Below the pieces are notes generated by a model. The model saw only the letters and a list, made by a program, of their open reading frames with translations, was not told the origin of the DNA and ran no database searches. From an uncultured Chloroflexia bacterium (GTDB taxonomy: Bacteria; Chloroflexota; Limnocylindria; Limnocylindrales; CSP1-4), in assembly GCA_963814125.1 (NCBI GenBank), contig CAWFBR010000001.1, forward strand, positions 218,340 through 282,339: a stretch of DNA of 64,000 nucleotides. Reading direction: 5' to 3'. A program made the position numbers and the translations under genes. This document shows, one piece after another, positions 7,316 to 23,152 of this stretch (positions are counted from its first letter, which is position 1; every line of letters starts with the position of its first letter).

Positions 7316-8518
7316 CTATCGACCCTCCGCTGGGGCCGTGCGCTGGACGAGCAGGCGTTCGATCGGTTCGTCGACCGCCCCCCATTCGTATTTGTAGGGC
7401 TCGTTGCCGCGCATGAAATCGATGCGCGACCGGCCTTGCTCGATGGCTCGTTGGATGTAGCGGGCGACCATGACCACTCCGGGAGATAGCTCTCTGGCGT
7501 CCGGCTCCACGCCGGCGTTGTAGTAGTAGACGGCGGTGCCGTCGTCGAACGTGACCCCAGCCGAAATCCTGCGGCCGGAAACTGAAAGGAAGCTGAGATC
7601 GACCAGGCCGGAGGGCGCGCAATTCTCGAACAGCCTGGCGAAGAACACCCGACTGGCGGCGCCGCCCTCCGTATCAGGGAAGAGACCCTCCGAGCCCCAG
7701 CGTTTCTGGTGCAGCTCCACGAAAGCGTCGAGATCGCCGAGTGGATCGGCCGAGCGCTCGAGCCGGACTTCGCCGGCCGCCTCGGCGCGGCGGATCTTGC
7801 GTCGTATCTCGTGCCGCTCCTTCTTGTCCAGCGTTCCGAGGTAGTCCTCGAACGAACTCCCCGACGGCAGCGTGAGAACGGGACAGACGTCCTCTTGCTC
7901 CCGAGTTACGTACCAGCAGGCCCTGGGCGCAACCCACTCGAACGACGCCGCCAGGGCGTCCCCTGCCGGGTCGCCGGAGCGAAGGCGTCGCAGGTCGATC
8001 ACGTCCCAGCGCGACGGCTCCTCCGCGGCGAGCGCCTCGACCACGGCGTCGCAGACCGCCGCGAGATCGGCCGGCGCCGCCAGGACCGTCGCGTAGTCGG
8101 CGTGGTACGAAGCCCCGAAGAAGACGGCGGTCGCCGAAGCGGGCACGGGTGGGAGGCCCGGGCCGGCCTGATGGCGGATGGTTGTTCGCGCCGCCACGTC
8201 CCCCGGCTCCAGCTCGTGGCGATGCATCAAAGGAACGATGCCGGCGATCGCGTCCGGAGCGTCCTCGTCCACCACGACGAGAGTCTGGTCGTGGGCGGTG
8301 GCTCCGTATGCGTCCCACCATGCCCGCTGCACGCAGTGGCGCGAGAATGGCGTGGCATCGGGCACCCGATCGACGAGCGAGTCCCAGGTCTGCGCCGGGA
8401 TGGAATCGAAGGCTCGGCGGACGGCGACGAGGCGGCGCGGCGCGGCGCGTCTTCCTTCTGCCGTCCCGGCAGCCGCCAATCCGACGCCGCTGGATCGTGG
8501 GTTCATCTCTGCCATCCG
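7316..8518 (-). CDS. FemAB/CelD-like GNAT-superfamily acyltransferase (Acetyltransf_6-like)
   Basis: C-terminal region …FVELHQKRWGSEGLF…LSFLSVSGRRISAGVTFDDGTAVYYYNAGVEPDARELSPG… resembles the BioF2/CelD/FemAB-like acyltransferase family. The start is assumed at the internal MAEMNP. Confidence 0.55.
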   Translation of the reverse strand, partial: RMAEMNPRSSGVGLAAAGTAEGRRAAPRRLVAVRRAFDSIPAQTWDSLVDRVPDATPFSRHCVQRAWWDAYGATAHDQTLVVVDEDAPDAIAGIVPLMHRHELEPGDVAARTTIRHQAGPGLPPVPASATAVFFGASYHADYATVLAAPADLAAVCDAVVEALAAEEPSRWDVIDLRRLRSGDPAGDALAASFEWVAPRACWYVTREQEDVCPVLTLPSGSSFEDYLGTLDKKERHEIRRKIRRAEAAGEVRLERSADPLGDLDAFVELHQKRWGSEGLFPDTEGGAASRVFFARLFENCAPSGLVDLSFLSVSGRRISAGVTFDDGTAVYYYNAGVEPDARELSPGVVMVARYIQRAIEQGRSRIDFMRGNEPYKYEWGAVDEPIERLLVQRTAPAEGR

Positions 8519-8626
8519 TGCGGACAGGCAGGCCCGCCGTCGCGGAGGGAGAGGCTGGTCACACGCCGAGAATAGCACCGCGGCCGCGGCAGGCCCGCCG
8601 CCCACTCCGCGACCCCGCAGGGTCGT

Positions 8627-8878
8627 TCAGAGGCCGAGGATCCGCTTCGCCTCCTCATACTCGGCGGGAGTGATCTCGCCGCGGGCGAAGCGCTCGCGAA
8701 AAAGCCTGGCCGAGTCATCGCGTCCACCAGTTCGGGCAAGCCGGATTCCGAGCGCGACGATCAACACCCCCATTGCCGCGGGGAGCGTCAAAATCGCCAG
8801 CAACTCGATCCAGCCGACGAGCGGAACCGCGATCACTCCGAAACCCCCTTTCGCCACCGCAACCAGCGTGCTTCCCAT
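8627..8878 (-). CDS. Small membrane-anchored SHOCT-domain protein
   Basis: N-terminal transmembrane helix followed by the C-terminal motif RFARGEITPAEYEEAKRIL (SHOCT). Confidence 0.55.
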   Translation of the reverse strand: MGSTLVAVAKGGFGVIAVPLVGWIELLAILTLPAAMGVLIVALGIRLARTGGRDDSARLFRERFARGEITPAEYEEAKRILGL

Positions 8879-8926
8879 CCAGGTGCCCTGTCAAGACTTG
8901 GCTCCGTTCTTCGACCTCGGGCTACC

Positions 8927-9366
8927 TCAGGGAAGACGCTCGAGCAGCACCACCGGGATCACCCGAGTGGTCCGCTGCTGATACTCCCCGAAGGCCGGGT
9001 ATCTCGCGGCACGCTCCGCGAAGAGGCGGTCGCGTTCGGCGCCGTCTGCCACGACCGCCCGGGCCCGGAATCTCTCGAGGCCAACCTCCGCCGTCACGAT
9101 CGGGTTGGCGATCAGATTCAGGTACCAGGCGGGGTCGGTCGGAGCGCCACCCTTCGAAGCCACGATGACGTAGCGGTCGCCGGCGCGGGAGTAGACGAGC
9201 GGCGTGAGACGCGGCAAACCGGACTTCGCCCCGGTGGTCGTCAGGAGCAGCAGGTCCCGGTCCACGAATGGGCCGCTGGTGACCTTGCCACCGTGGGCTC
9301 GGAAGTCTTCTACCAGGGCCGCGGTCCTCGCGGTGCGTGCGGTTCTCGGGTCTGGACCTGACATCT
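8927..9366 (-). CDS. Deazaflavin (F420)-dependent nitroreductase-family oxidoreductase (DUF385/FDR-A like)
   Basis: …VTSGPFVDRDLLLLTTTGAKSGLPRLTPLVYSRAGDRYVIVASKGGAPTDPAWYLNL… is the family signature. The upstream part of the track ORF was judged spurious. Confidence 0.65.
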
Positions 9367-10389: not shown

Positions 10390-10482
10390 GATCGGGAGTG
10401 TACGGGCCTGCCCCTCGGTTCGCACCGTCCGCTGCGGCGCTAGGACTGCCCGGTCCGCCGGTCGGCGGCCACGATAGGTCGT

Positions 10483-11532
10483 TTGTACCGGTGGAGGCAG
10501 TCCCGGCCGATGCTACGCTGCGCCGACGTGCGGATCCTCTTCGCTCTGTTTGCGTTTGCCCTGGTCGTGAGGGCGCTGCTGTTCGGGTTGCACCCGGACG
10601 CGGCTTACCCCGACTCGTACTACTACGTGGACGTCGCTCGGGCGTTGCAGGCCGGACACGGCTTCAACATCGACTTCATCTACTCCTTCCTGGACGTCGG
10701 CGGCAGGATCCCGCCCAACCCCACCCTGCCGATCCCGAGCAACGGCTTCTGGATGCCTCTCGCCTCGATCGTCCAGGTGCCGACGATGTGGCTGCTCGGA
10801 CCCACAGCGCTTGCCTCCGCCCTGCCGTTCATCCTTGTCGGCTCGCTCGCCGCGCCGCTGACGTGGCTGGTTGCGAGAGAAATCGGCTGCCGGCCCGCGG
10901 TGGCTCTGGCGGCTGGAATCGCCGTAGCCAGTCCCGCGGCCTGGGGCAGGCTGCGAGCCTGGCGCTCAGGGGGTGCCCGAACGCCCGCGATACCGTGGCG
11001 ATATGCCTTGGCCTGCCTCGGCCTGTTCCTCCTCGCGATGGCGCCCTGGTACCTGCGCCAGCTGGCCGTCTTCGGCAGCCTCTCCCCGTCGTCGGGCTCC
11101 GGCAGTGTCTTCTTCATCCAGCACTACGACGACATCGAGCGCGTCGGCGGGGACATATCGCTGACGGCATACCTTGGCCAGGGTCTGGTCCCGCTCCTCA
11201 CCAGCCGGCTGGTCGGATTGGCGGCCGCGCTCGGCATCTTCGCCGTGCTTGCCCGTTCGCTGGCCCTCGCTCCGTTCGTGGTGGTTGGCGGTTGGGCCCA
11301 TATCGTCGCGCCACTCGCGCCGGTGATCGAATCGGTGGTGCGACCGAGCTGGCTGGGCCCGCCGATCTTCGTGATCCCGTACACATGGCCCCGGACCGGC
11401 GATCCGGCCGCGGACAGCGCGCCGGCTCTGGCGATCTACCCGGTCTGCATCGCCGCCACCGATACGCGCTGCGGGGCAGCCCCGGCCACTGCGCAGGTCC
11501 CCGGCGGCGCCGGGATCGAGTACCTGCCGTGA
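10483..11532 (+). CDS. GT-C fold membrane glycosyltransferase (ArnT/PMT_2-like, GT39/GT83 family)
   Basis: Multiple TM helices and an N-terminal loop motif PDSYYYVDVARALQAGHG (the ArnT/PMT D-E/Y…A…G loop). Divergent from the GT2 gene. Confidence 0.7.
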   Translation: MYRWRQSRPMLRCADVRILFALFAFALVVRALLFGLHPDAAYPDSYYYVDVARALQAGHGFNIDFIYSFLDVGGRIPPNPTLPIPSNGFWMPLASIVQVPTMWLLGPTALASALPFILVGSLAAPLTWLVAREIGCRPAVALAAGIAVASPAAWGRLRAWRSGGARTPAIPWRYALACLGLFLLAMAPWYLRQLAVFGSLSPSSGSGSVFFIQHYDDIERVGGDISLTAYLGQGLVPLLTSRLVGLAAALGIFAVLARSLALAPFVVVGGWAHIVAPLAPVIESVVRPSWLGPPIFVIPYTWPRTGDPAADSAPALAIYPVCIAATDTRCGAAPATAQVPGGAGIEYLP

Positions 11533-13238
11533 GTCGGCGCGAAGCCTGGATGAGTGCCGGCGCCGTCTTCGCCGTCGCACTCGTCGTTCGGGCGGTTGTC
11601 GCGGCCACGGTCGGCTTCCCGGTCCCGGAGGACACGGCCTACTACGCGGGCGTCGCCCGCAACCTAGTGGAGGGCCGGGGCCTTATCAGCGACGCCCTGT
11701 GGAGCTACCAGACCCAACCGCTGACGGTGCCGCGCGCGGCATTCGAGGTCTGGATGCCACTGCCGTCGCTCCTCGCGGCCGTGCCGATGGCGATCGCGGG
11801 TGCGGCCAACTGGTTCCGGGCCGCTCAAGTCGTTTCCGTGCTGGCTGGCTCGGGCCTCGCGGTGCTGGCATGGCGGCTCGGCGCCGACGTTGCCGCGGAG
11901 ATGCGACTGCCGGTCGGACGGGCACGGACGCTGAGCGTGGGCACGGGCCTGGTGGCGAGCCTGCTGGGCCCGCTTGTCGTCTACAGTGCCCTGCCCGACT
12001 CCACGGCCCTTTTCGCCTTGCTTGCCGTGGCGGCCTGCCTGGTCATGACCCGCATCGCCTCCAGGTCCGGGTCCGGCCTGGAGGCCGCAGTCCCGAGCCG
12101 GCAGCTGGTGGCCCTCGGCGCCATTCTCGGCCTTGCCGCCCTGACCCGCAGCGAGGCCATCTGGCTCGGGTTGGCCTGGTTGGCTATCGTGTGGCGCGGT
12201 TTGCCGACGCGGACTGTGGAGGGCTCACCGGCCGCCGCAACTGCCGAGGGAGCCGCCATCCGGTCTCCATCCCGCCGGTCGGAACGCCTTCGGCTGGCTC
12301 TCGTGCCCGGAGTCATCGCCGCGCTGGTCTTCGCCCCATGGGCCGTTCGAGACTGGCTGACGTTCGGCAGTCCGCTGCCCGGTCAGACGCTCAACAACGC
12401 CTTGTACGTAAGCAACGTCGACATCTTCGCGTACCGGGACCAACCATCCCTGGCCGGGTACCTGGCCCAAGGCCCGGCCGCGCTCATCGGGATGCACGTG
12501 GCCGGCATTGGCCACAACCTGTTCAACGTTCTGATCATCCCCGCTTTCCCGCTCGGCCTCATAGGGCTGCTCGTGCTCCCGAGAGTCTGGCGGCTCGCGT
12601 CGCTGCGGCCTCTCGTCCTGACCTCGCTCCTCATTTTCGCGGTCACCAGCCTGCTGTTCCCGGTCAGCACGCAGTCCGGCACTTTCTTGCACGCGGCGGG
12701 CGCGGTTCTGGTACTGATGATCGTCAGCAGCCTGGTCTGGTTCGACGCCTTGATCGTGTGGGTTGCGCGGTTGCGGCACTGGACCCGGCCGGTGGCCTGG
12801 CTCGGGCCCGCCTTCGCGATAGCAGTGACATTCCCCCTCACCGGAGTCTCGGTCTTCGCGGTCTCGCGCCAGGCCGAGGATGTCCGGGCCCGATACGAGG
12901 CGCTGCCTGCGGCAATGGCGCGCGCTGGAGTTCCTCTCGGAAAGGCCGGGCCGGTTATCACCAACTTCCCGATATGGCTGGCCGAGTCGGCTCGTATCCA
13001 GACGCTCGCCCTTCCTGAGGAACCGCCGGACGCCGTCCTGGACCTCGCCCATCGATTTGGGGCGAGTCTTCTCGTCATTCAGAATGACGATCTCAGGCAG
13101 TGGCCGGGTATCTTGACTCGCGACGCAACGGCGGCTGCGTGCTTCACAGAAGTCCCACTGACCAATTCCACGGGAGGAAAGCCAGTGGAAACCTCGCCCC
13201 TGGCACAAATACACGTATTCCGGATTGTCTGCCCATGA
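11529..13238 (+). CDS. GT-C fold membrane glycosyltransferase, paralog of the upstream gene
   Basis: Equivalent motif PEDTAYYAGVARNLVEGRG and many TM helices. A GTG start overlaps the upstream stop (GTGA); an alternative ATG is at 11550. Part of the 946-aa track ORF. Confidence 0.65.
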   Translation: MSRREAWMSAGAVFAVALVVRAVVAATVGFPVPEDTAYYAGVARNLVEGRGLISDALWSYQTQPLTVPRAAFEVWMPLPSLLAAVPMAIAGAANWFRAAQVVSVLAGSGLAVLAWRLGADVAAEMRLPVGRARTLSVGTGLVASLLGPLVVYSALPDSTALFALLAVAACLVMTRIASRSGSGLEAAVPSRQLVALGAILGLAALTRSEAIWLGLAWLAIVWRGLPTRTVEGSPAAATAEGAAIRSPSRRSERLRLALVPGVIAALVFAPWAVRDWLTFGSPLPGQTLNNALYVSNVDIFAYRDQPSLAGYLAQGPAALIGMHVAGIGHNLFNVLIIPAFPLGLIGLLVLPRVWRLASLRPLVLTSLLIFAVTSLLFPVSTQSGTFLHAAGAVLVLMIVSSLVWFDALIVWVARLRHWTRPVAWLGPAFAIAVTFPLTGVSVFAVSRQAEDVRARYEALPAAMARAGVPLGKAGPVITNFPIWLAESARIQTLALPEEPPDAVLDLAHRFGASLLVIQNDDLRQWPGILTRDATAAACFTEVPLTNSTGGKPVETSPLAQIHVFRIVCP

Positions 13239-14347
13239 AGGACGCCCCGTATACTCCAAGCGGTATGGACGCTGCCAGAGGCGCCGCAGAATCGCGTGAC
13301 TCGCGCTTCGACGAGTTGTACGCCGAGGCGAAATCCGCGCTGGGCTACGGGGCCAACAATCTCCGCTCTGTCACCGAGAGATACCGCGAGGCTTATCGCG
13401 ACACTCTGGGTCGCTGGCACCATCTCCGAGATGAGCTCGATGTATCCGACCGCGCCCCCCTGCCGCAGTCGGACAGCGGGGATCCGGAGGCCGCGGCCGA
13501 GGCGGGCGCGGAGGACGCTCGCCAGAAGGCGCTACGTGCCGAGGTCGAACGCCTTACCGGCGACCTGGGCCGGCACCAGCAGGAACTGTCCAAGCTCGAA
13601 CTCTCGGTCCGGAGCATGGAGAACTCCTGGCTCTTCCTCGAGCGCGGCGACGCCAGCCTCGTGGCCGAGGTCGCCGACGCGGGCCTGGCCACCGACTTCC
13701 AGATGCGCATCGTCCAGGCTCAGGAGGCCGAGAGATCGCGGCTCGCGCAGGAGGTCCACGATGGGCCTGCTCAGGCCCTGTCCAATGCCATCTTCCAGGT
13801 CGAGTACATCGAGCGCGTACTCAACGAGGACGTTCGGGTTGCCGGCAGTGAACTGCGCTTCCTGCGCGAGCTGCTGCGCCGTGAGTTGGGGGAGGTACGC
13901 ACCTTCATCAGCCAGCTGCGGCCCCCACTTCTCGACGAGCTCGGCCTGGACGGCTCGATCATGGACGCGGTCGAGAGCATGGCCGCCCTTACCGGCGCCA
14001 CCGTCGAGACCGAACTTCGAGCGCCCGGCGACGACCTGACCCCAACCCAGCAAACCGCCGTTCTGCGGATCGTCCAGGAAGCGCTCCAGAATGTCCGCAA
14101 GCACGCGGCCTCAAGTCGTACTGTCGTGTCGACGCGTACGGAGCCTGGAAGCTGGATCGTGGAGGTCTCCGACGACGGCCGCGGCTTCGACGTGAACGCG
14201 GTGGCGGCCAGGGGTCGACGCAACTTTGGCCTCCAATTCATGCGGGAGCGAGCCGATCTCATCGGTGCCCAGTTCGAGGTTCGATCACGGCAGGGCGGCG
14301 GGACTGTCGTCTGGCTGTCGATTCCAGTGGGAGAGGAGAGCACATGA
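13235..14347 (+). CDS. Cytoplasmic sensor histidine kinase, HisKA_3/NarL-type (DegS-like)
   Basis: Coiled-coil N-terminus, H-box EVHDGPAQALSNA, N-box IVQEALQNVRKHA, G1 box DDGRGFD, G2 box GLQFMRERA. The ATG overlaps the upstream GT-C stop (ATGA). Confidence 0.8.
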   Translation: MKDAPYTPSGMDAARGAAESRDSRFDELYAEAKSALGYGANNLRSVTERYREAYRDTLGRWHHLRDELDVSDRAPLPQSDSGDPEAAAEAGAEDARQKALRAEVERLTGDLGRHQQELSKLELSVRSMENSWLFLERGDASLVAEVADAGLATDFQMRIVQAQEAERSRLAQEVHDGPAQALSNAIFQVEYIERVLNEDVRVAGSELRFLRELLRRELGEVRTFISQLRPPLLDELGLDGSIMDAVESMAALTGATVETELRAPGDDLTPTQQTAVLRIVQEALQNVRKHAASSRTVVSTRTEPGSWIVEVSDDGRGFDVNAVAARGRRNFGLQFMRERADLIGAQFEVRSRQGGGTVVWLSIPVGEEST

Positions 14348-15087
14348 GTTCAACGGACCACAGCGGGTCGGACAGGCACCGGCCGGTGCCAGATGACCGC
14401 GGCGTAGAGAAGACGACAATCCTCCTGGTGGACGACCACACGCTGTTCCGCGTGGGCATGCGCCAGATCCTGGAGCGCGAACCGGGGTTCGACATCGTCG
14501 GAGAGGCCGACGACACCCGCAGCGCGTTCGATCTGGCGGTCCAGCTGTCGCCGGACATCATTCTCATGGATCTCTCCCTACCGGCCCCGGGGGGGATCGA
14601 GACGACGCAGCGCATCAAGCGCGAGCTGCCGTCGGCCGGGATCATCGTCCTGGCAGTGAACGAGGATGAGGACGCCCTCTTCGATGCCATCAAGGCCGGG
14701 GCGGCCGCCTTCATTCTCAAGGACGTCGCGCCCGACGACCTGGTCGCCATCATCCTTCGCGTCGCCGGCGGCGAGTACTTGATCAACGACAAGGTGTTTG
14801 CCAAGCCAGCCGTGGCGAGCCGCGTGCTCAAGGAGTTCCGCGAGCTGGCTATCTACGGCCAGGAAGCGGCCCCGATCTTCGCACCGCTGTCGCCGCGCGA
14901 GGTCGAGATCCTCGACAACATCGCCCAGGGAATGACGAACAAGCAGGTCGCCTACGCCCTGTCCATCAGCGAGCAAACCGTCAAGAACCACATGTCCAGC
15001 ATCCTGCGCAAGCTCAGCGTGAACGACCGCACCCAGGCCGTCGTGTACGCCATGCGTCAGGGCTGGATCCGGATGCCCGAGGACTGA
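14344..15087 (+). CDS. NarL/LuxR-family response regulator (REC + HTH_LuxR)
   Basis: ILLVDDHTLFRVG…IILMDLSLP receiver domain, and a C-terminal LSPREVEILDNIAQGMTNKQVAYALSISEQTVKNHMSSILRKL. Confidence 0.85.
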   Translation: MSSTDHSGSDRHRPVPDDRGVEKTTILLVDDHTLFRVGMRQILEREPGFDIVGEADDTRSAFDLAVQLSPDIILMDLSLPAPGGIETTQRIKRELPSAGIIVLAVNEDEDALFDAIKAGAAAFILKDVAPDDLVAIILRVAGGEYLINDKVFAKPAVASRVLKEFRELAIYGQEAAPIFAPLSPREVEILDNIAQGMTNKQVAYALSISEQTVKNHMSSILRKLSVNDRTQAVVYAMRQGWIRMPED

Positions 15088-15094
15088 GCTGCCC

Positions 15095-16261
15095 GTGGCC
15101 ATCGAACCGATGCCGCTCCCACTTCTCGAGCTCGCGGAGCGGGCCAGACGCGAAGTCGATCTTCTGACCCGGGAGATCGGCGAGTTGGAGCTGCTCGTCC
15201 AACAGGCCCGCACGGAAGCCAGCCGGCACGAGCAGAAGCGCTCCCAGGCTGCCGACAAGCTCAAACCTTCGGGCAAGGGATCCACCCCCGAGGTGGACAA
15301 CCAGGTCGAGCAGCTCCTGGCGTTGACCAAGCGCTCCGCGGTCATGGAGTCGCAGATCGAGATCCTCGAGGGCAAGCTCAAGATCCTGACCCGCTTCCGG
15401 GAGAGCCTGCGCCGCTACAGTTCCGAGCTGGACCGAGCATCGATGGGCGGTGCGATGCCCCAGCACACGTCGGGCAAGCTGGACACGAGCACGCCGCTCC
15501 CACCGGCAGTCTCGCGCCTGGTTCAGGCGGCTCAAGAAGACCTCCGCCGAGAGATCGCGCGGGCGATGCACGACGGCCCGGCCCAGAGCCTGACCAACAT
15601 CGTGCTTCAGGCCCAGATCGTGGAGCGGCTGCTGGAGCGCGACCCGGCCGCGGCCAGGGCGGAGATCGGGCAACTCGTGGCCATGGTCCAGCACACGCTC
15701 GACGCGACCAAGACATTCATCTTCGACGTGCGACCCATGGTCCTGGACGACCTCGGCCTCGTACCCACTCTCCGGCGAGTAGCACGGGATCGGGGCCGCC
15801 GTTCGCAGATTCCCATCGAATTCGAGTCGTACGGCACAGACCGCCGCCTGCCCATGGACGTCGAAAGCGCGCTCTTCCGCATCATCGACGAATCCGTCAC
15901 CGGCTTCCTATCGTGCCATCCGGACCGGATATCCATCCGCTTCGAATGGGCGGACAGCCCAGAGGCGCGCATCTCCGCCAAGCGCGAGGGTGTCGAAGAA
16001 CCCGACGAGCCCGAGTTCGAGACACCGTTGCCGGGGGACAAACATGGCCGGGCGGTCGATCGGGATCTCCCGGAGGCGCTCAAGGCGATGATCGACGAGA
16101 CACGGGCAGCCAAGGTGTCCCGCGCGGCCCGGACCAACCAGACGCTGGCCCTGCCCCCCAATACCTGGCGAGAGATTCAGCAGCGTGCGGCCACGATCGG
16201 CGTCACGGCCGAGCTCGTGGACGAAGGCCGGGAGGTCGTCCTGGTCCTGGCCGCGAGTTGA
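15095..16261 (+). CDS. DegS-like histidine-kinase paralog with a degenerate ATPase domain (probable pseudokinase, phosphatase or modulator)
   Basis: Coiled-coil N-terminus. The H-box is conserved (AMHDGPAQSLTNIVLQAQIVERL). The C-terminal half lacks the N-box Asn and the DxGxG/GxGL motifs (RIIDESVTGF…). Confidence 0.55.
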   Translation: MAIEPMPLPLLELAERARREVDLLTREIGELELLVQQARTEASRHEQKRSQAADKLKPSGKGSTPEVDNQVEQLLALTKRSAVMESQIEILEGKLKILTRFRESLRRYSSELDRASMGGAMPQHTSGKLDTSTPLPPAVSRLVQAAQEDLRREIARAMHDGPAQSLTNIVLQAQIVERLLERDPAAARAEIGQLVAMVQHTLDATKTFIFDVRPMVLDDLGLVPTLRRVARDRGRRSQIPIEFESYGTDRRLPMDVESALFRIIDESVTGFLSCHPDRISIRFEWADSPEARISAKREGVEEPDEPEFETPLPGDKHGRAVDRDLPEALKAMIDETRAAKVSRAARTNQTLALPPNTWREIQQRAATIGVTAELVDEGREVVLVLAAS

Positions 16262-16344
16262 CCGAAAGCCTGCCAGCCGCGGATCCGGGGGTTTGGTCGG
16301 AGTCGCCTGCAGAGAGACTCCGGAGACATCCAACGGCGAGTCTT

Positions 16345-16497
16345 CCTTCAACGGAACGGTCAGGGCATCAGTCCGGTCAGGGCCTGATCGAGTACGGGCT
16401 CATCCTCGTCTTGATGGCCGTGGTCTGCGTCGTGTCGCTGGTCTTCTTCGAGGACCAGCTCTCCTCCCTGCTGAGTCTGATCACGTCGGCCGTGTGA
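16345..16497 (+). pseudogene. Flp-pilin-like ORF without a canonical start codon
   Basis: The frame encodes …TERSGHQSGQGLIEYGLILVLMAVVCVVSLVFFEDQLSSLLSLITSAV (Flp motif G/xxEY + hydrophobic core). There is no in-frame ATG, GTG or TTG between 16261 and 16380. Confidence 0.35.
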
Positions 16498-16669
16498 TCG
16501 TTGCGTTGACAGCACGCGCCGACTTCGCCCATCAGGCACGCCGAACCGAGGTCGGGAAGGTGGGGTTACGGGCGGTCCCATTACCATCTTGCTAGTGGCG
16601 CCCGGAGGACCCGCCACCCAGAATACAGGTCATGCCTCCTATTGGAGGCGCACTTATCAGGAGGACATC

Positions 16670-16813
16670 ATGTTGTTCCGGTCCCAGAAGGGCCAGGGCC
16701 TCGCCGAGTACGCCCTGATTCTCGCACTCATCGCCATCCTCGCCATTGCCGCCCTCGGGCTCCTGAGCGGAAGCATCAACGGCATCCTCGAGGAGATCGG
16801 CAACAGCCTGTAA
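16670..16813 (+). CDS. flp: Flp/Fap family pilin (Tad pilus major subunit)
   Basis: MLFRSQKGQGLAEYALILALIAILAIAALGLLSGSINGILEEIGNSL. A strong RBS CAGGAGG lies 5 nt upstream of the ATG. The annotated upstream extension of this ORF in the track is spurious. Confidence 0.75.
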   Translation: MLFRSQKGQGLAEYALILALIAILAIAALGLLSGSINGILEEIGNSL

Positions 16814-16831
16814 CCGCCCCGCTGCGACAAG

Positions 16832-16868
16832 AAACGGGCCGCGCCTCAAGCGCGGCCCGTTTCGTTTG
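16832..16868 (+). terminator. Rho-independent terminator after flp
   Basis: Perfect hairpin AAACGGGCCGCGC-ctcaa-GCGCGGCCCGTTT, followed by a T-rich stretch (TCGTTTGTC). Confidence 0.6.
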
Positions 16869-17088
16869 TCCGGGAGAGACGCCGGCCAGATCGCCGGACG
16901 CGGGCCTCATGGCGATGTCACCTGGTCCAGGCGAACAAGCGTGCTCCAAACTGCCTGACATCCGCCCCCCATCCCGAGCAGATTCCGAGAATCCTTCCTA
17001 GAGTGCCTAGTCCATTGGTATAGTCGCAGTAAGGTTGTCCGCAAGGCTACCGTCGTGCCATCTGTCACATGTGCTCGGGAGTGTCGTC

Positions 17089-18057
17089 GTGAAACGATCG
17101 AATCGGCTGCTCATCCTGCTAGGGGTCTTTCTGGCGGTCGCCGGTGGCCTGGGGACGATGGTCCTCATCAACGGCAGCGGCAGCAATGGCGGCGGCGACA
17201 ACGGCGGCAACTCTGCGTCTCCAACACCTTCACCCGAACCCGTGACGACGGTCGTCGTCGCCAAGCAGAACATCGTTCTCGGCGACAAGATCACAGCGGC
17301 TATGGTCGACACCAAGAAAGTGACCATTTCCGAGCAGCAGCAGCTCGGCGCTGATACCTATTCCGATGTAAGCCAGGTGATCGGGAAGATCGCTGGAGGC
17401 AGCATCGTCAGCGGACAGGTACTCCTGGCGAGTCGTGATTTCCTGCCTCCTGGGACCGTGGCCGAGGGACAGGACATCGCGAGTCTTGTAGGGACCGGAA
17501 TGCTCGGCGTGATCGTGGAAGTCGACCAGTTGAACGGAGTGGGAACGCTGCTTGTGCCCGGCGACCGCGTGGACGTCATTCTGAGCGTGTATATGGATCA
17601 GGTAGCTCTGACGGCTGAGGACTCGAACAAGACGACGATCGCGCTGCCCGGCGGAAGCCGTGTGACCAGCAAGATGGTGATCCAGAATCGCAAGATTCTG
17701 ACCACGCTCCTCGCGCCGGCGGAGGCTGGAGCGAATCCCACTCCCGGCCCTTCGAGTGTCCCGGTAGCCGGACCCACTCAGGCGCTCGTCCAGAACACCG
17801 GGCGGCACATGCTGGTCCTGCTGGAGGTCAAGCCAGACGAGGCGGAGATCCTGCGTTGGGCTCAGCGCGAGGAGAGGACGGATCCCCCAACCTATATCGA
17901 CCTGTCGCTCGCTCTGAGGTCGGACAAGGACAACGATCTGCCCAACGCGACCACGCCGGGCATCACCTTCAAGATGCTCGTCGACAAGTACGGCGTCCTG
18001 CCGCTCGACCCGCGTGGCATTCTCCCGCCCGACCTGGCCCAGGGCGTCTCGTGGTAG
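17089..18057 (+). CDS. cpaB: Flp pilus assembly protein CpaB/RcpC (SAF domain)
   Basis: N-terminal TM helix, SAF-like region, 'ILSVYMDQ…' features. A GTG start is preferred because of an upstream GGGAG RBS. The track ORF starts at 17035. Confidence 0.7.
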   Translation: MKRSNRLLILLGVFLAVAGGLGTMVLINGSGSNGGGDNGGNSASPTPSPEPVTTVVVAKQNIVLGDKITAAMVDTKKVTISEQQQLGADTYSDVSQVIGKIAGGSIVSGQVLLASRDFLPPGTVAEGQDIASLVGTGMLGVIVEVDQLNGVGTLLVPGDRVDVILSVYMDQVALTAEDSNKTTIALPGGSRVTSKMVIQNRKILTTLLAPAEAGANPTPGPSSVPVAGPTQALVQNTGRHMLVLLEVKPDEAEILRWAQREERTDPPTYIDLSLALRSDKDNDLPNATTPGITFKMLVDKYGVLPLDPRGILPPDLAQGVSW

Positions 18058-18142
18058 AGCGCTCCGCCGACTCTCGGCGGAGCGAACGGCGAGAGGTCGG
18101 CCCCCATCGGCCTCTCCCGACAACTGGAAGCGACCGAGTTCG

Positions 18143-19372
18143 ATGACTGACCGGATCCGAGTTCTCATCGTCGACGACATTCCTGAGACAAGAGACCACC
18201 TCGTCAAGCTGCTCGGATTCGAGTCGGACATCGAAGTGATAGGCACGGCATCATCGGGAAATGAGGCCATCGAGATGGCCACCAAGCTGCTTCCTGATGT
18301 CATCCTGATGGACATCAACATGCCGGACATGGACGGCATAACCGCCACAGAGCGGCTCTCCTCCCACGTACCGACAGCCTCGGTCGTGATGATGTCCGTT
18401 CAAGGAGAGGCCGACTACCTCCGCCGTTCAATGCTCGCCGGCGCTCGTGAGTTTCTGGTCAAACCGTTCAGCAGCGACGAGCTGACGGCCTCGATCCGGC
18501 AGGTGAGCGAGCGCGAGCGCGAGAAAGTCGGGCGCGCCGTCGTCGTCGCCGCGCGTGCGCTGGAGCTCTCCGAAGAGGGGCGGGTGGTGGCCGTGTTCAG
18601 CCCAAAGGGGGGCGTGGGCCGAACCACAATTGCCGTCAACCTCGCCGTGGCCGCGGCTTCGGAGCTTGGCAAGAAGGTCACGCTCGTCGACGCGTCGTTC
18701 CAGTTCGGCGACGTAGCGGTGCTGCTGAACCTGAATCCAAAAGACAAGTCCATGGCCGAACTCGTGCCGCAGCTCGAGGGCGCGGGCGACCCGGACTCGG
18801 TCGAGGCTTACACCCAGAACCACTCGTCCGGCATTCGCGTCCTGCTCGCGCCGCCATCGCCGGAGATGGCCGAACTGATTACCCCAGCGGGCGTGAAGCA
18901 CGTCCTCGAGATCCTTCGCCAGCGCAACGAGCTGGTAGTTGTCGATTGCGCTGCCTGGTTCAATGACGCGACTCTGGGTATCCTGGACCTGGCCGACATA
19001 ATACTGACGGTGCTGACCCTTGAGATCACCAGCATCAAGAACACGCGACTGTTCCTCGAAGTGGCGGAGCAGCTCGGCTACGCGCACAAGGTCCGGCTTG
19101 TCCTCAACAGAGCCGACACCACTCTTGGCATCAGGGTCGCGGATGTCGAGCACTCGATCGGCCGCAAAGTCGACCACACCATCGTCAGCGACGGGCGAGC
19201 GGTCGTATACGCCCTCAACAGGGGCGTTCCTTTCGTCTTGAGCAATCGTGAGAGCCAGGTCTCGCAGGACGTGTTTCGTCTAGCAGCATCGATACTCGGA
19301 AGCCCAGAGCCGCGCGAAGAGGAAAGCCGCAAGGCACCCCAGAAGGGCAAGTCCCTCTTCGCATGGAGATAG
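18143..19372 (+). CDS. TadZ/CpaE pilus-assembly ATPase (ParA/MinD-like) with an N-terminal canonical receiver domain
   Basis: REC: IRVLIVDDIPETRDHL…VILMDINMPDMDG. ATPase: VFSPKGGVGRTTIAVNLA. Start at MTDRIRV inside the track ORF. Confidence 0.8.
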   Translation: MTDRIRVLIVDDIPETRDHLVKLLGFESDIEVIGTASSGNEAIEMATKLLPDVILMDINMPDMDGITATERLSSHVPTASVVMMSVQGEADYLRRSMLAGAREFLVKPFSSDELTASIRQVSEREREKVGRAVVVAARALELSEEGRVVAVFSPKGGVGRTTIAVNLAVAAASELGKKVTLVDASFQFGDVAVLLNLNPKDKSMAELVPQLEGAGDPDSVEAYTQNHSSGIRVLLAPPSPEMAELITPAGVKHVLEILRQRNELVVVDCAAWFNDATLGILDLADIILTVLTLEITSIKNTRLFLEVAEQLGYAHKVRLVLNRADTTLGIRVADVEHSIGRKVDHTIVSDGRAVVYALNRGVPFVLSNRESQVSQDVFRLAASILGSPEPREEESRKAPQKGKSLFAWR

Positions 19373-19404: not shown

Positions 19405-20799
19405 ATGTCCCTTCTGAAGCGAATCGAAAGCGCCCGACCGGGCGTAGCCCCCGGAGCTCCGACCGGGGCCCCCACGGCCCCACCAGGGCCTCCCGGGATG
19501 TCCGGGCAGGGCGGACAGCGGCTGCTCAGCCAGGCTCCCGTTCGAGAGTCGCTCCGCGAGGTCAAGTTCCGCATCCAATCCCGGGTTATCCAGGATCTGG
19601 ACCCGAAGCTCGATCTGGCCAATCAGGTCGAGGTCCGCCGTCAGATCGAGGAGATCTTCGGTCGTGTCATCGATGAGGAGGGCCTGGCTCTCACCCGCGC
19701 CGAGCGGGTCCGCATGCTCGAGCAGATTACCGACGAGATCATCGGCCTGGGCCCGCTCGAGCCGCTCCTGCGCGACGAGAGCGTCACGGAAGTCATGGTC
19801 AATGGGCCGCGCCAGGTGTACATCGAGCGTAGTGGTCGCCTGGAGTTGACCAACGTCGTGTTCCAGAACGACGACCACGTCATGCGCATCATCGATCGGA
19901 TCATTTCCCCGATCGGTCGCCGCATCGACGAGTCGAGCCCGATGGTCGATGCGCGCCTCACCGACGGCTCGCGCGTCAACGCAATCATTCCACCGCTGTC
20001 CCTCATCGGACCGGTCATCACCATTCGTAAGTTCTCTGCCTCGCCGTTCACGGTGGACGACTTGATTAAATTCGGGACCGCCACGCCGGAGATGTTCGAC
20101 TTCCTTCGCGCCTGCGTGGAAGCTCGCCTCAACATCTTCGTTTCTGGAGGCACCGGCTCCGGCAAGACCACGACCCTGAACGTACTCTCCTCGTTCATCC
20201 CGAACGACGAGCGGATCATTACCGTAGAAGACGCGGCGGAACTCCAGCTCCGCCAGGAGCATGTGGTCACGCTCGAGTCGCGCCCATCCAACATCGAGGG
20301 CAAGGGCGCCATCCCGATCCGCGAACTCGTCCGGAACTGCCTGCGAATGCGGCCCGACCGGATCATCGTCGGCGAGTGCCGAGGCGGAGAAGCGCTCGAT
20401 ATGCTCCAGGCCATGAACACCGGCCACGACGGCTCGATGTCCACCGGCCATGCGAACACGCCGCGCGACATGCTCTCCCGACTCGAGACGATGGTCCTCA
20501 TGGCCGGCGTCGATCTGCCTCTACGGGCCATCCGCGAGCAGGTTTCGTCCGCGGTCGACCTCATCGTCCATCAGTCACGCATGAAGGACGGCTCCCGCCG
20601 CATCGAATTCATCACCGAGGTCCAGGGCATGGAAGGTGATGTGGTCGTCATGCAGGACGTCTTCCTGTTCGAACAAACCGGCGTGGTTGACGGCAAGATC
20701 CAGGGCCGGCTCCGAGCCACAGGCATCCGGCCCAAGTTCGTGGAGAAGTTCGAGATCAAGGGCATCCATCTGCCGCGCGGTCTGTTCGGCTTCTCATAG
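19405..20799 (+). CDS. TadA/CpaF secretion ATPase (type II/IV secretion NTPase family)
   Basis: Walker A GGTGSGKTT, and ECRGGEALDMLQAMNTGHDGSMSTGHAN is typical of CpaF. Confidence 0.9.
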   Translation: MSLLKRIESARPGVAPGAPTGAPTAPPGPPGMSGQGGQRLLSQAPVRESLREVKFRIQSRVIQDLDPKLDLANQVEVRRQIEEIFGRVIDEEGLALTRAERVRMLEQITDEIIGLGPLEPLLRDESVTEVMVNGPRQVYIERSGRLELTNVVFQNDDHVMRIIDRIISPIGRRIDESSPMVDARLTDGSRVNAIIPPLSLIGPVITIRKFSASPFTVDDLIKFGTATPEMFDFLRACVEARLNIFVSGGTGSGKTTTLNVLSSFIPNDERIITVEDAAELQLRQEHVVTLESRPSNIEGKGAIPIRELVRNCLRMRPDRIIVGECRGGEALDMLQAMNTGHDGSMSTGHANTPRDMLSRLETMVLMAGVDLPLRAIREQVSSAVDLIVHQSRMKDGSRRIEFITEVQGMEGDVVVMQDVFLFEQTGVVDGKIQGRLRATGIRPKFVEKFEIKGIHLPRGLFGFS

Positions 20800-20819
20800 A
20801 CCGAGGCAGGAGAGACGAA

Positions 20820-21836
20820 ATGGTATCGGTCATTCTCGGGCTGCTGGTGTTCTCAGGCATATTGCTGCTCGTGCTCGGCCTGACGAGCTCGGGCGGGAGC
20901 GCCGGCATCAGCGCTCGTCTTGAGCGCTACGCCGCCGGCAGGAACGAGGTGACGGCATCGGCTGGCACCGCTCAGCAGTCGCCCGGCATTGGCGAGATCC
21001 TCGGTCAGAGCGTGGCCCTGGCCCGCTTGAACCGAGTAGTGGAGCAGCGGGACTTCGGCGCCAGTCTGGCGCGCGATATCGCTCGCGCCGACCTCAAGCT
21101 CAAGCCCGGCGAGTTCATCGCCATATGGGCCACGACGATAGTGACGATCCCGTTCATCTTCTTCACCCTCGGCCTGGTATTGACACCGCTCAAGACACCA
21201 ATCGCCCTCCTGGTCGGGGCCACGGTCGGCTTCTTCCTGCCGCGCATGTGGCTGGGTCGCCGCCGGGCGGGGAGGTTGTCCGCGTTCAACAAGCAACTGC
21301 CCGACACCATCACGCTGCTGGCGAACGCGCTGCGAGCCGGGTCGTCATTCCTCCAGGCCATCGAGATGGTCGTACGGGAAGCACAGCCGCCGATCACCAT
21401 CGAGTTCGGCCGTGTCGTCCGAGAGGTCAACCTCGGCCTCGCCTTCGACGCCGCGTTGGAGAACATGGTCCGGCGGGTTCGGTCGGACGACCTCGAACTG
21501 ATGGCGACGGCGATCACCATTCAGCACCAGGTCGGCGGCAACCTCGCGGAAATCCTGGACTCGATCGCATTCACTATTCGAGAACGCGTCAGGATCAAAG
21601 GCGAGATCCGGACCCTGACCGCCCAACAGCGGCTGTCGGGCTACGTGGTCGCCGGCATGCCGATAGCCCTTGTGGGCATCCTCTTTGTCATCGCCCCAAA
21701 GTTCATGGAGCCGATGTTCGAGAACCCACCAGGCGTCCTGGGGCTGCCGGCCGGCATCATCCTCCTCATGGTTGGCGGCTTCTTCATGTTCATCGGGTTC
21801 ATCCTGATTCGGCGCATCGTCGCCATCGAGGTCTGA
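20820..21836 (+). CDS. TadB pilus assembly membrane protein (T2SS-F family)
   Basis: T2SF-domain pattern (…LPDTITLLANALRAGSSFLQAIEMV…) and three TM segments. Confidence 0.8.
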   Translation: MVSVILGLLVFSGILLLVLGLTSSGGSAGISARLERYAAGRNEVTASAGTAQQSPGIGEILGQSVALARLNRVVEQRDFGASLARDIARADLKLKPGEFIAIWATTIVTIPFIFFTLGLVLTPLKTPIALLVGATVGFFLPRMWLGRRRAGRLSAFNKQLPDTITLLANALRAGSSFLQAIEMVVREAQPPITIEFGRVVREVNLGLAFDAALENMVRRVRSDDLELMATAITIQHQVGGNLAEILDSIAFTIRERVRIKGEIRTLTAQQRLSGYVVAGMPIALVGILFVIAPKFMEPMFENPPGVLGLPAGIILLMVGGFFMFIGFILIRRIVAIEV

Positions 21837-21839
21837 GAG

Positions 21840-22769
21840 ATGCTTCTCTTCATCCTCCCCGCTTTCGTCTTCGCCGGGATCCTGCTCCTCATTCTCGGGC
21901 TGGCCGGCGGCTCACCGGTAGATCCCGTCCAGGCCCGCCTGACTCAACTCGGCTCGGCCCAGGCGAAGAACCTCGAGGAGCTCGAGCTTCAGCAGCCCTT
22001 CACTGAGAGGACATTGCGACCGCTCGTCGCCCGCCTGTCGAGAATGGGCGGACGCCTGGGGAGGGTCTCTTCGACCGAGGTCGCCGAGAGGCGACTCGCC
22101 CTGGCCGGCAATCCGGGCGATCTGAAGCTGGCCGACTGGATGGGCGTGAAGATACTGGTGGCCATCGCCGTCGGCGTGCTGATGTTCCTTCTTCTCGGCG
22201 TGCTGTCGGGCGACGTGGTCGTCGGGCTGCTCCTGGCCGTGCTTGGCCTCGGCATCGGCTATCTGCTGCCGGAATTCTGGCTGGGCGGCAAGATCAAGGC
22301 CCGCCAGAAGGTCATTCTCGTCATGATCCCGGACACGCTCGATCTTCTGACCATCTCGGTGCGCGCGGGACTCGGCTTCGACGCGGCTCTGGCGAAGGTG
22401 GTCGAGAAGCTTCCCGGCCCATTGAGCGACGAGTTCCGCCGGGCCCTCGCCGAGGTTCGCGTCGGCAAGGCGCGGCGGGACGCCCTGCGGGACATGGTCC
22501 CGCGCACAAACGTCGCGCCCCTGTCCAACTTCATCGGCGCGATCGTCCAGGCAGAGCAATTGGGCGTATCGATTTCCAAGGTGTTGCAAATCCAGTCCGA
22601 GCAGCTCCGCATCGAGCGACGGCAGCGCGCGGAGGAGCAGGCGGCCAAGGCGCCGATCAAGATGCTCTTCCCGCTCGTGGGCTGCATCTTCCCGTCCCTC
22701 TTCATCGTCATTCTGGGGCCGGCGATCATCTCCATCATGAAGACCTTCAGCTCGAACGCCATTCCGTGA
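21840..22769 (+). CDS. TadC pilus assembly membrane protein (T2SS-F family)
   Basis: Paralogous T2SF pattern (…IPDTLDLLTISVRAGLGFDAALAKV…). Confidence 0.8.
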   Translation: MLLFILPAFVFAGILLLILGLAGGSPVDPVQARLTQLGSAQAKNLEELELQQPFTERTLRPLVARLSRMGGRLGRVSSTEVAERRLALAGNPGDLKLADWMGVKILVAIAVGVLMFLLLGVLSGDVVVGLLLAVLGLGIGYLLPEFWLGGKIKARQKVILVMIPDTLDLLTISVRAGLGFDAALAKVVEKLPGPLSDEFRRALAEVRVGKARRDALRDMVPRTNVAPLSNFIGAIVQAEQLGVSISKVLQIQSEQLRIERRQRAEEQAAKAPIKMLFPLVGCIFPSLFIVILGPAIISIMKTFSSNAIP

Positions 22770-23152
22770 GTCGGCGGCGGCAGGTCGCTCGCAACGTCAG
22801 CCGCGGAACCCAACTCGCCGAGCGGCTCGAAGTCGGCTCATCGTTCTGGGCCAAGTTCATGGGTCTCATGGGTCGGGCGGCCTTGCCGGACGGCGACGGA
22901 CTCTGGCTTCCCGGCGAGAACGGCATCCACATGCTGTTCATGAGGTTTCCTATAGATGTCGTGTTCGTGGCACCGCCCTCGAGCGGCAGAGACGGCTCCC
23001 GGCGAGTGCTATCAGTGCGCCGGGCGGTGCGGCCGTGGCGGGGCGTGGTGTGGCGGGTGAGCGGAGCCAAGGGTGTTCTGGAGCTGCCGGCCGGTACGAT
23101 CGACGAATCCGGAACGGCGGTGGGCGACGACATCTACATCGGCTTTCCGTGA
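22766..23152 (+). CDS. DUF192 (COG1430) domain protein
   Basis: …WAKFMGLMGR…GLWLPGENGIHMLFMRFPIDVVFV… matches the DUF192 core. Its start overlaps the tadC stop. Confidence 0.5.
   Translation: MSRRRQVARNVSRGTQLAERLEVGSSFWAKFMGLMGRAALPDGDGLWLPGENGIHMLFMRFPIDVVFVAPPSSGRDGSRRVLSVRRAVRPWRGVVWRVSGAKGVLELPAGTIDESGTAVGDDIYIGFP

Follow-up and report, generated by a model that had tools for sequence, protein, structure and literature searches.

Within the 64,000 nucleotides of contig CAWFBR010000001.1 analyzed here, which derive from an uncultured member of the Limnocylindrales (Chloroflexota) and will be referred to as the window, an open reading frame (ORF) on the forward strand at positions 15095-16261 (GTG start; TGA stop, codon 16259-16261) encodes a DegS-like protein of 388 amino acids. 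It is preceded by the genes of an intact histidine kinase and a NarL/DegU-type response regulator and followed by the genes of a tad pilus operon. The protein, termed pseudokinase in the following, is a pseudoenzyme under purifying selection, in which the ATP-binding motifs are lost and the fold is kept. Instead of working as a kinase, it probably passes on or removes phosphate, because its phospho-histidine module is intact, its ATP motifs are lost, and the gene is conserved class-wide beside tad genes. The reading we favour, with a probability of roughly 0.45, is that the pseudokinase would be an intermediate in ATP-independent phosphoryl transfer, placed between the regulator and the receiver domain of the pilus protein TadZ.

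Phospho-histidine module and C-terminal domain of the pseudokinase

Residues 1-136 (15095-15502) comprise an N-terminal helical hairpin, predicted to be a coiled coil of the DegS-type input region, and a linker. They are followed by a HisKA_3-type dimerization and histidine phosphotransfer (DHp) domain (residues 137-236, 15503-15802) with His159 (codon 15569-15571), and by a degenerate domain resembling the catalytic and ATP-binding (CA) domain of kinases, with a Bergerat-type alpha/beta fold (residues 237-388, 15803-16258). A variable acidic insert (residues 300-325, 15992-16069) occupies the place of the G1 box and ATP lid in this CA-like domain.

HisKA_3 (PF07730; residues 151-217, E-value 2.2e-13) was the sole Pfam match of the pseudokinase, and the full-length NCBIfam kinase models MctS and UhpB covered residues 141-272 only. 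BLASTP comparison with the kinase encoded upstream yielded 33% identity over residues 141-268 (E 8e-14). The H-box string AMHDGPAQSLTNIVLQAQI corresponds to residues 157-175, with the phospho-acceptor H159 in the motif HDGPAQ. A hidden Markov model specific for the C-terminus recognized 275 collected proteins, and an H-box-like motif was locatable in 221 of them, the remaining 54 being mostly N-terminally truncated fragments. The motif HDGP[AV]Q was found in 219 of these 221 family members, down to an overall identity of approximately 34%. Together with the HisKA_3 match, this bears out the conservation of the DHp domain and its H-box noted in the preliminary description. A scan of one genome per species yielded 586 relatives, the best 80 loci of which were used for gene-order and identity counts; among these 80 loci the DHp domain (residues 147-180 and 198-229) is nearly invariant.

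In a profile search of PDB sequences, DesK residues 16-95 aligned with the DHp domain of the pseudokinase, making His159, Asp160, Gln164, Thr167 and Leu171 equivalent to His188, Asp189, Gln193, Ser196 and Leu200 of DesK, respectively. DesK Gln193 positions the hydrolytic water and Leu200 plugs a pocket at alpha-1 of the regulator, and the role of the Gln in H-D-x-x-x-Q has been described for both DesK and NarX (PMC5231405). The pseudokinase keeps Asp160 and Gln164 of this phosphatase-type motif. Its alpha-1 docking helix HDGPAQSLTNIVLQAQIVERLL closely matches HDGPAQSLTNLILQAEICERL of intact kinases found in the same gene position in related loci, and the position of DesK Leu200 is a Leu in the pseudokinase and in these kinases, and a Phe in the upstream kinase, which differs from the pseudokinase at many alpha-1 docking positions. 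Judged from these sequences, the pseudokinase very probably still binds the receiver of the regulator via the ancestral alpha-1 surface of its DHp domain.

For the remaining domains a sample of 32 family members was used, which included the window protein and 31 others that are 34-76% identical to it. The DegS domain PF05384 was matched by one of the 32, and weakly (E 0.054); intact relatives with PF05384 align to the pseudokinase from approximately residue 10. These relatives, together with two long N-terminal helices in the structural model, support the coiled coil proposed earlier. With a Kyte-Doolittle(19) maximum of 1.08, the pseudokinase is without a transmembrane segment, and the upstream kinase likewise has no transmembrane-like segment. 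Linker residues 117-136 (15443-15502, MGGAxPQHTxDKLDTSTPLPPAV) are predicted to be disordered, with a predicted local distance difference test score (pLDDT) below 50, yet are nearly invariant among close orthologues, and may form a docking motif.

No HATPase_c family was matched in the pseudokinase by Pfam searches even at E ≤ 1. At the same threshold HATPase_c models matched none of the 32 family members, all of which matched HisKA_3. BLASTP and profile-profile comparison by hhalign with the family of the upstream kinase both ended at the N-box (FRIIDESVT followed by G270 versus LRIVQEALQ followed by N), and a search with the family profile against all PDB sequences aligned the DHp domain of DesK only, although those chains include the CA domain. 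Motifs were compared in a multiple alignment with the nearest intact DegS-like relatives; the mid-CA part of the global hhalign alignment was distrusted, and only its ends were used. According to the multiple alignment, the Mg-binding Asn of the N-box is replaced by Gly270, and the N-box Lys and His by Ser and Cys. Gly at the Asn position was present in all seven family members aligned and in the consensus of 76 orthologues. The G1 box DDGxGF is absent, and an invariant Arg297 is found close to where the adenine-binding Asp would be; G2 (GLxxMxER) is changed to LPxNTW358REIQQRA, in which the G2 glycines are gone. The ATP-lid region holds an insert of 30-60 amino acids, variable in length and sequence among homologues and directly followed by a family-specific conserved helix, (D/E)LPPALAAM (residues 326-347). 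Among approximately 60 full-length cluster representatives with a degenerate C-terminal domain, none has N, G1 and G2 boxes together. Profile search, hhalign and multiple alignment thus agree with the loss of the N-box Asn, G1 and G2 that had been read from the sequence, and the prediction of a DegS-like pseudokinase held on every computational test run. As the N, G1 and G2 boxes are absent and the lid is replaced by an insert and a new helix, the pseudokinase is not expected to autophosphorylate; its CA-like domain would be folded but unable to bind ATP.

Two further DegS-like proteins encoded after a regulator, one at 8001-9086 of locus L085 (on a 6.1-Mb contig) and one at 7031-8035 of locus L156, have independently degenerated CA domains. 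In both the domain is of normal length, and no intact kinase is adjacent. The L085 protein again has Gly at the position of the N-box Asn and is followed by a TadE-domain protein of 1819 amino acids.

An AlphaFold2 model of the pseudokinase, calculated with 47 homologues as input, had a mean pLDDT of 70, with values of 80-90 across residues 222-299 and 350-388. The model consists of an N-terminal hairpin (helices 8-55 and 65-116, pLDDT 70-84) and the DHp hairpin (helices 137-182 and 184-218), followed by an alpha/beta sandwich in which the Bergerat fold is kept. Residues 300-322 are disordered (pLDDT below 50), and an extra helix (327-347) is located at the site of the ATP lid. DesKC was the top Foldseek match (E 7.5e-7); ChpT of Brucella (4qpk and 4qpj, E 3e-4 to 1e-3) and RetS were also matched, and the CA-like domain superposes on the CA domains of VraS, DevS and DesK. 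Pairwise ratios of nonsynonymous to synonymous substitution rates (dN/dS) against ten orthologues were 0.04-0.08 for the DHp domain and lay at 0.06-0.18 in both halves of the CA-like domain; they reached 0.15-0.39 in the N-terminal domain and, in most comparisons, 0.2-0.5 in the insert.

The gene is present in hundreds of genomes and metagenome contigs, and with this conservation the ORF is not a product of chance. The 120 best matches of a word-indexed protein search were 77-100% identical to the pseudokinase, 383-405 amino acids long, and carried PF07730 only; in their sources they are named DegS or 'histidine kinase, Candidatus Limnocylindrales'. An exhaustive HMMER analysis of 1.84 billion cluster representatives yielded 170 matches at E ≤ 1e-30, and the family forms approximately 60 clusters at 50% identity. 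A word-indexed search with the C-terminal domain alone retrieved only 70 proteins, most of them encoded by gene fragments belonging to this family, and established no connection to intact kinases. The best 80 of the 586 relatives all originate from Chloroflexota metagenome-assembled genomes, many of them labelled Limnocylindria or Limnocylindrales. The regulator gene lies directly upstream of the pseudokinase gene in all 67 loci with room for it, that of the intact kinase directly ahead of the regulator gene in 66 of 67 Limnocylindria loci, and tadZ downstream of the pseudokinase in 53 of 53; these counts include loci in which the pseudokinase is only 48-57% identical. The Limnocylindria order, histidine kinase, response regulator, pseudokinase, Flp, CpaB, TadZ, CpaF, TadB and TadC, is fixed, and a distant family member in locus L084 sits directly between a regulator and TadZ.

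Origin of the pseudokinase and changes in its putative partners

The kinase encoded upstream (13100-14347, forward strand; 415-amino-acid ORF with an uncertain true start) is a cytoplasmic HisKA_3 kinase (HisKA_3 E 6e-14, HATPase_c E 6.4e-13) with intact N (QEALQNVRKHA), G1 (DDGRGF) and G2 (FGLQFMRER) boxes. Its stop overlaps the start of the regulator gene (14344-15087, forward strand), and the pseudokinase gene begins 7 nucleotides after the regulator stop.

At 33-39% identity the pseudokinase family merges into intact kinases carrying the Pfam domains DegS, HisKA_3 and HATPase_c. These relatives align to the pseudokinase from approximately residue 10 to 270-300, that is over the N-terminal domain, the DHp domain and the start of the CA domain (129-159 bits), and to the upstream kinase of the window over DHp and CA only (96-137 bits). 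In a neighbour-joining tree of residues 140-268, the clades of the pseudokinase and of the upstream kinase each received 100% bootstrap support and were sisters in none of 100 replicates; the mean tree distance of the pseudokinase was 1.03 to the intact relatives and 1.56 to the upstream kinase. Gene position points in the same direction. In locus L086 the order is regulator, intact DegS-like kinase, Flp, a 282-amino-acid protein, a TadZ with receiver domain (REC-TadZ), CpaF, TadB and TadC, and no kinase is encoded upstream of the regulator. A metagenome scan seeded with the intact relatives yielded 61 loci in which a LuxR-type regulator gene is immediately followed by a DegS-like gene; intactness of the kinase was scored there by the G1 box and by reading the sequence. 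The G1 box was kept in 59 of the 61 genes, and a kinase-like gene upstream of the regulator was found in only 2 of 32 such loci. REC-TadZ occurred within 6 kb downstream in 15 of the 27 loci with enough downstream sequence.

From these comparisons of sequence and gene position we conclude that the ancestral module is a regulator plus a DegS-like kinase beside a tad operon. Since related tad loci carry an intact DegS-like kinase in the same slot, usually without an upstream kinase, the pseudokinase has descended, with degeneration, from the ancestral cognate kinase, and the upstream kinase is a more distant, added partner. The term paralog used in the preliminary description needs correction: the protein is not a recent duplicate of its neighbour and corresponds instead to the intact kinase that follows the regulator elsewhere. 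A recent tandem duplication of the upstream kinase was accordingly rejected, the pseudokinase being closer to the after-regulator kinases in sequence, tree and gene position. The three-component set had further been called unusual beside pilin genes. This applies to the third, ATP-blind component and to its fixation throughout the Limnocylindria, but not to a DegS/DegU-like pair next to Flp/Tad genes, which is common (the 15 of 27 loci above).

In two metagenome loci a mirror image of the window arrangement was observed. The upstream kinase-like proteins of L095 (1536-2174) and L114 (5524-6213) have intact N, G1 and G2 boxes and lack the phospho-histidine (DLEDRVGQ and SLQEGPGQ), and the DegS-like protein after the regulator keeps both its His and the G1 box. 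The pattern hints at an ability of transmitter proteins on the two sides of the regulator to complement each other.

The regulator is of the NarL/DegU type (Response_reg E 5.7e-25; GerE, the LuxR-type helix-turn-helix, E 1.4e-22; NarL model E 1.1e-48) and is 78-95% identical across the 80 loci. Its receiver keeps D30, D31, D76 and K126. At the conserved Thr/Ser position it carries Ala104 (codon 14653-14655), and Ala was present there in 76 of 77 Limnocylindria orthologues. Two residues further on (T+2) the Limnocylindria regulators have Asn, Ser or Thr and no aromatic residue, and T+4 in the window is Asp108, not Arg. Regulators paired with intact DegS-like kinases have Thr in 63 of 65 cases, followed by Ala or Gly (T+1) and by Tyr or Phe (T+2). 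In DesR, Thr80 and Phe82 close a phosphate lid, which stabilizes the phosphorylated regulator, makes transfer one-way and limits back-transfer (PMC5231405). The change in the receiver coincides with the change from kinase to pseudokinase, and by analogy with DesR we infer that loss of the Thr and of the aromatic T+2 residue would be expected of a receiver handing its phosphate on.

A second receiver is present in TadZ, a TadZ/CpaE-like ATPase of the ParA/MinD type (18143-19372, forward strand; likely start at Met44 of the ORF 18014-19372) with a receiver domain at approximately 18161-18496. Pfam matched Response_reg over the full model (E 4.7e-28) as well as AAA_31, CbiA and ParA. TadZ proteins typically carry an atypical receiver (10.64898/2026.07.08.737194), usually described as non-phosphorylatable and proposed to act through protein contacts. 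Here, all 62 Limnocylindria orthologues and all 24 from other loci retain the active-site residues DD, D, S and K. Such a canonical receiver suggests phosphorylation control of pilus assembly in these lineages, and makes TadZ, encoded four genes downstream of the pseudokinase, a candidate for a second phospho-acceptor. Regulator and TadZ provide the conserved operon with two receivers whose active sites are intact. No paper on a phosphorylatable TadZ receiver was found in the literature.

Proposed role of the pseudokinase and alternative explanations

The three roles named in the preliminary description (phosphatase, phosphotransfer partner or inhibitor) are all retained as candidates. In the favoured transfer model the upstream intact kinase would supply the ATP-dependent step. 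The pseudokinase would dock to the receiver of the regulator through its ancestral DHp alpha-1 surface, and His159 could be charged either by back-transfer from the phosphorylated regulator or in trans by the CA domain of the upstream kinase. His159 would then hand the phosphoryl group to a second receiver, for which the receiver domain of TadZ/CpaE is the best candidate, possibly with some hydrolytic (phosphatase) leak alongside the transfer. By this means the relay might couple transcription of the pilin genes to assembly or placement of the pilus. All phosphotransfer steps and their direction are deduced from sequence and analogy. A more specific version, which we regard as rather unlikely, is a complete four-step phosphorelay with the old kinase as relay protein, running from the new kinase via the LuxR-type regulator and His159 to the TadZ receiver; the lost Thr and aromatic lid residues of the regulator would then ease back-transfer. 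If true, one flow of phosphate would set both pilin transcription and pilus assembly or placement.

Several observations weigh against transfer. The whole alpha-1 helix is invariant, and the conservation of His159 is inseparable from that of Asp160 and Gln164. Covariation analysis over the 80 loci gave no signal for a docking partner; alpha-1 in both the DHp domain and the TadZ receiver is essentially invariant, and that of the regulator varies slightly. REC-TadZ also occurs in loci with a single intact kinase, so that a phosphorylatable TadZ can be explained without the pseudokinase. Furthermore, the first receiver of known relays is stand-alone or fused to a kinase, whereas here it belongs to a DNA-binding regulator, and HisKA_3 kinases such as DesK are built to minimize back-transfer (PMC5231405).

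The same conserved residues can be read differently. A dead ATP site might fix the protein in the HisKA_3 state that is competent as a phosphatase, the CA-like domain being clamped on DHp, and turn it into a dedicated phosphatase, much as a kinase-dead bifunctional kinase defaults to phosphatase activity. Gln164 would then position the water, and the protein would dephosphorylate the regulator and perhaps TadZ, possibly controlled by its DegS-type input domain, with the upstream kinase as the 'on' signal. We consider this the main rival of the transfer model, if on balance unlikely. The invariant D160 and Q164 next to the His and the retained cognate-type docking surface fit well. In the phosphatase state of DesK the CA domain is rigidly docked on DHp and provides more than 400 Å2 of the regulator interface (PMC5231405), which would be a reason to keep a folded CA-like domain under selection. 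On the other hand, the upstream kinase has the same HDGPAQ motif and could be its own phosphatase, and the Ala at the Thr position suggests that the phosphorylated regulator is already less protected. The DesK mechanism engages Phe82 and Arg84 of its regulator (PMC5231405), whereas the regulator of the window has no aromatic T+2 residue and Asp108 at T+4. In the comparable case of PhyT, an initial assumption of phosphatase function gave way to the finding of a phosphotransferase (PMC5898713).

Alternatively, the pseudokinase could be a non-catalytic partner of the upstream kinase, for which His159 is not needed, acting in a DHp heterodimer or a higher-order complex, where it would inhibit the kinase, provide a scaffold or feed in signals via its DegS-like N-terminal domain. 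The genes of both proteins are co-fixed and share an operon in which they are translationally linked, pseudo-kinases acting by contact are known (DivL and RetS, both among the structural matches), and the upstream proteins of L095 and L114 show the opposite defect, an intact CA domain without His. Those upstream proteins, however, are not specifically related to the window kinase, and the distance between the two DHp domains (33% identity, tree distance 1.56, never sisters) disfavours heterodimers; a pure scaffold would moreover give no reason for the near-universal His159, Asp160 and Gln164. We therefore regard this explanation as improbable. Still less credible is a kinase that remains active by binding ATP or another phosphodonor in a non-canonical pocket formed by Gly270, Arg297, LPPALAAM and Trp358. 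Relocation of catalytic residues is known from some pseudoenzymes, the motifs that replace the boxes are conserved in their turn, and purifying selection acts on the domain; but all three nucleotide-contacting motifs were lost together, with an Arg near the adenine-binding Asp position and Gly for the Mg-binding Asn, and the ATP lid has given way to a helix-forming insert, much as in ChpT, a protein that binds no ATP (PMC3433190). Loss of catalytic motifs resembles, at first sight, the decay of a pseudogene, or else an annotation artefact, an explanation to which we give practically no weight. Essentially all loci contain the full-length ORF, dN/dS values of the DHp and CA-like domains are 0.04-0.18, the family comprises some 60 clusters at 50% identity, the gene order is fixed, and the fold is confidently predicted. 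Gene decay was rejected because the dN/dS values and the fixed order contradict it.

The surrounding operon and comparison with known systems

The genes of the operon up to tadC are located on the forward strand. The first ORF of the Flp pilin type (16258-16497) has a mature-like part, GLIEYGLILVL..., from position 16381. No ATG or GTG lies near this part, and the sole in-frame canonical start is TTG 16258, which overlaps the stop of the pseudokinase gene. This may reflect an unusually long leader of approximately 40 amino acids, translational coupling, a non-canonical start, or a defunct copy. The second Flp pilin gene (16671-16813; Flp_Fap E 8.3e-07) starts with ATG 16671 after AGGAGGA, and orthologous loci contain one to five Flp copies. 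Just 3′ of it, inspection by eye revealed a GC-rich hairpin, GGGCCGCGC-CTCAA-GCGCGGCCC, followed by the T-rich GTTTCGTTTGT (16836-16869), which looks like an intrinsic terminator; a scan of 12900-17200 for promoter and terminator consensus sequences gave nothing useful and missed this hairpin. A CpaB/RcpC-like pilus assembly protein (17035-18057; RcpC E 3.1e-10, SAF) is encoded before TadZ. The genes downstream of tadZ (19405-22769) encode the CpaF/TadA ATPase (19405-20799), TadB (20820-21836) and TadC (21840-22769), assigned by their order and by 68-96% identity across the 80 loci; their L086 equivalents are annotated with T2SSE and T2SSF. A gene for a DUF192 protein (22766-23152, E 2.5e-15), whose start overlaps the stop of tadC, closes the tad operon. 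Beyond it lie unrelated housekeeping genes (ComF-like phosphoribosyltransferase, hibernation-promoting factor). At 10398-13238, two long ORFs (10483-11532 and 10398-13238) overlap in different frames, and each resembles part of a large membrane protein; the equivalent in L085 is a single 970-amino-acid glycosyltransferase of the TMEM260/PMT_2 type. This region may hold two genes or an assembly frameshift.

Few kinase-like proteins that keep the phospho-histidine and lose ATP binding have been studied (Spo0B, ChpT, PhyT); none is of the HisKA_3/DegS lineage, and their origins are obscure. No paper on a HisKA_3-derived pseudokinase or on its tad-linked arrangement was found in the literature. 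In the present case the ancestral state survives in related loci, the derived state is fixed across a class of abundant soil and freshwater Chloroflexota, and the receiver of the regulator has changed too. The system thus offers a tractable case in nature of how a simple two-component system can evolve into a phosphorelay or into a split pair of kinase and phosphatase. As all parts are soluble and encoded in one operon, the competing models are directly testable in vitro.

The pseudokinase resembles DegS in size and architecture, being soluble and consisting of an N-terminal helical domain, a HisKA_3 DHp domain and a domain of CA fold, and, as in the DegS/DegU system, a NarL/DegU-type regulator adjoins it. 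It differs from DegS, DesK, VraS and DevS in the missing N, G1 and G2 boxes and in the 30-60-residue insert and new conserved helix at the lid. DivL has a Tyr in place of the phospho-histidine. Unlike DivL and RetS, the pseudokinase keeps its His almost universally and has lost the ATP site instead.

ChpT combines a DHp-like hairpin carrying a phospho-histidine with an atypical Bergerat domain whose ATP lid is replaced by extra helical turns, and neither binds ATP nor autophosphorylates (PMC3433190); it serves two receivers, CtrA and CpdR (PMC9981736). The pseudokinase shares the phospho-histidine hairpin and the extra helix in the place of the lid. No sequence relationship to ChpT is detectable, however; the pseudokinase is of HisKA_3/DegS lineage, its N-terminal input domain is long, and no hybrid-kinase receiver would act as its upstream donor. 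Spo0B shuttles phosphate between two receivers, as we propose for the pseudokinase. It belongs to another sequence family and was not among the structural matches listed for the pseudokinase. The candidate donor also differs, being a LuxR-type regulator here in place of the stand-alone receiver Spo0F. With respect to membership of the ChpT or Spo0B families, Pfam and NCBIfam gave matches to HisKA_3-type kinases only, and the PDB profile searches found DesK only.

PhyT is membrane-bound and belongs to the HWE/HisKA_2 lineage. Formerly PhyP, it was assumed to be a phosphatase in the general stress response of Sphingomonas melonis and transfers phosphate from SdrG to PhyR via a conserved His; in addition, it sequesters a regulator (PMC5898713). 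It is likewise a kinase-like protein without kinase function, and the same ambiguity between phosphatase and phosphotransferase applies to the pseudokinase. The PhyT system has its kinases encoded at other sites; in the window all parts share a single operon with the output machinery. By DHp sequence, fold and ancestry the pseudokinase belongs to the HisKA_3/DegS lineage, and it fails the ATP-binding test that defines a kinase. In function we liken it, by analogy, to the group of Spo0B, ChpT and PhyT, of which it is not a member by sequence.

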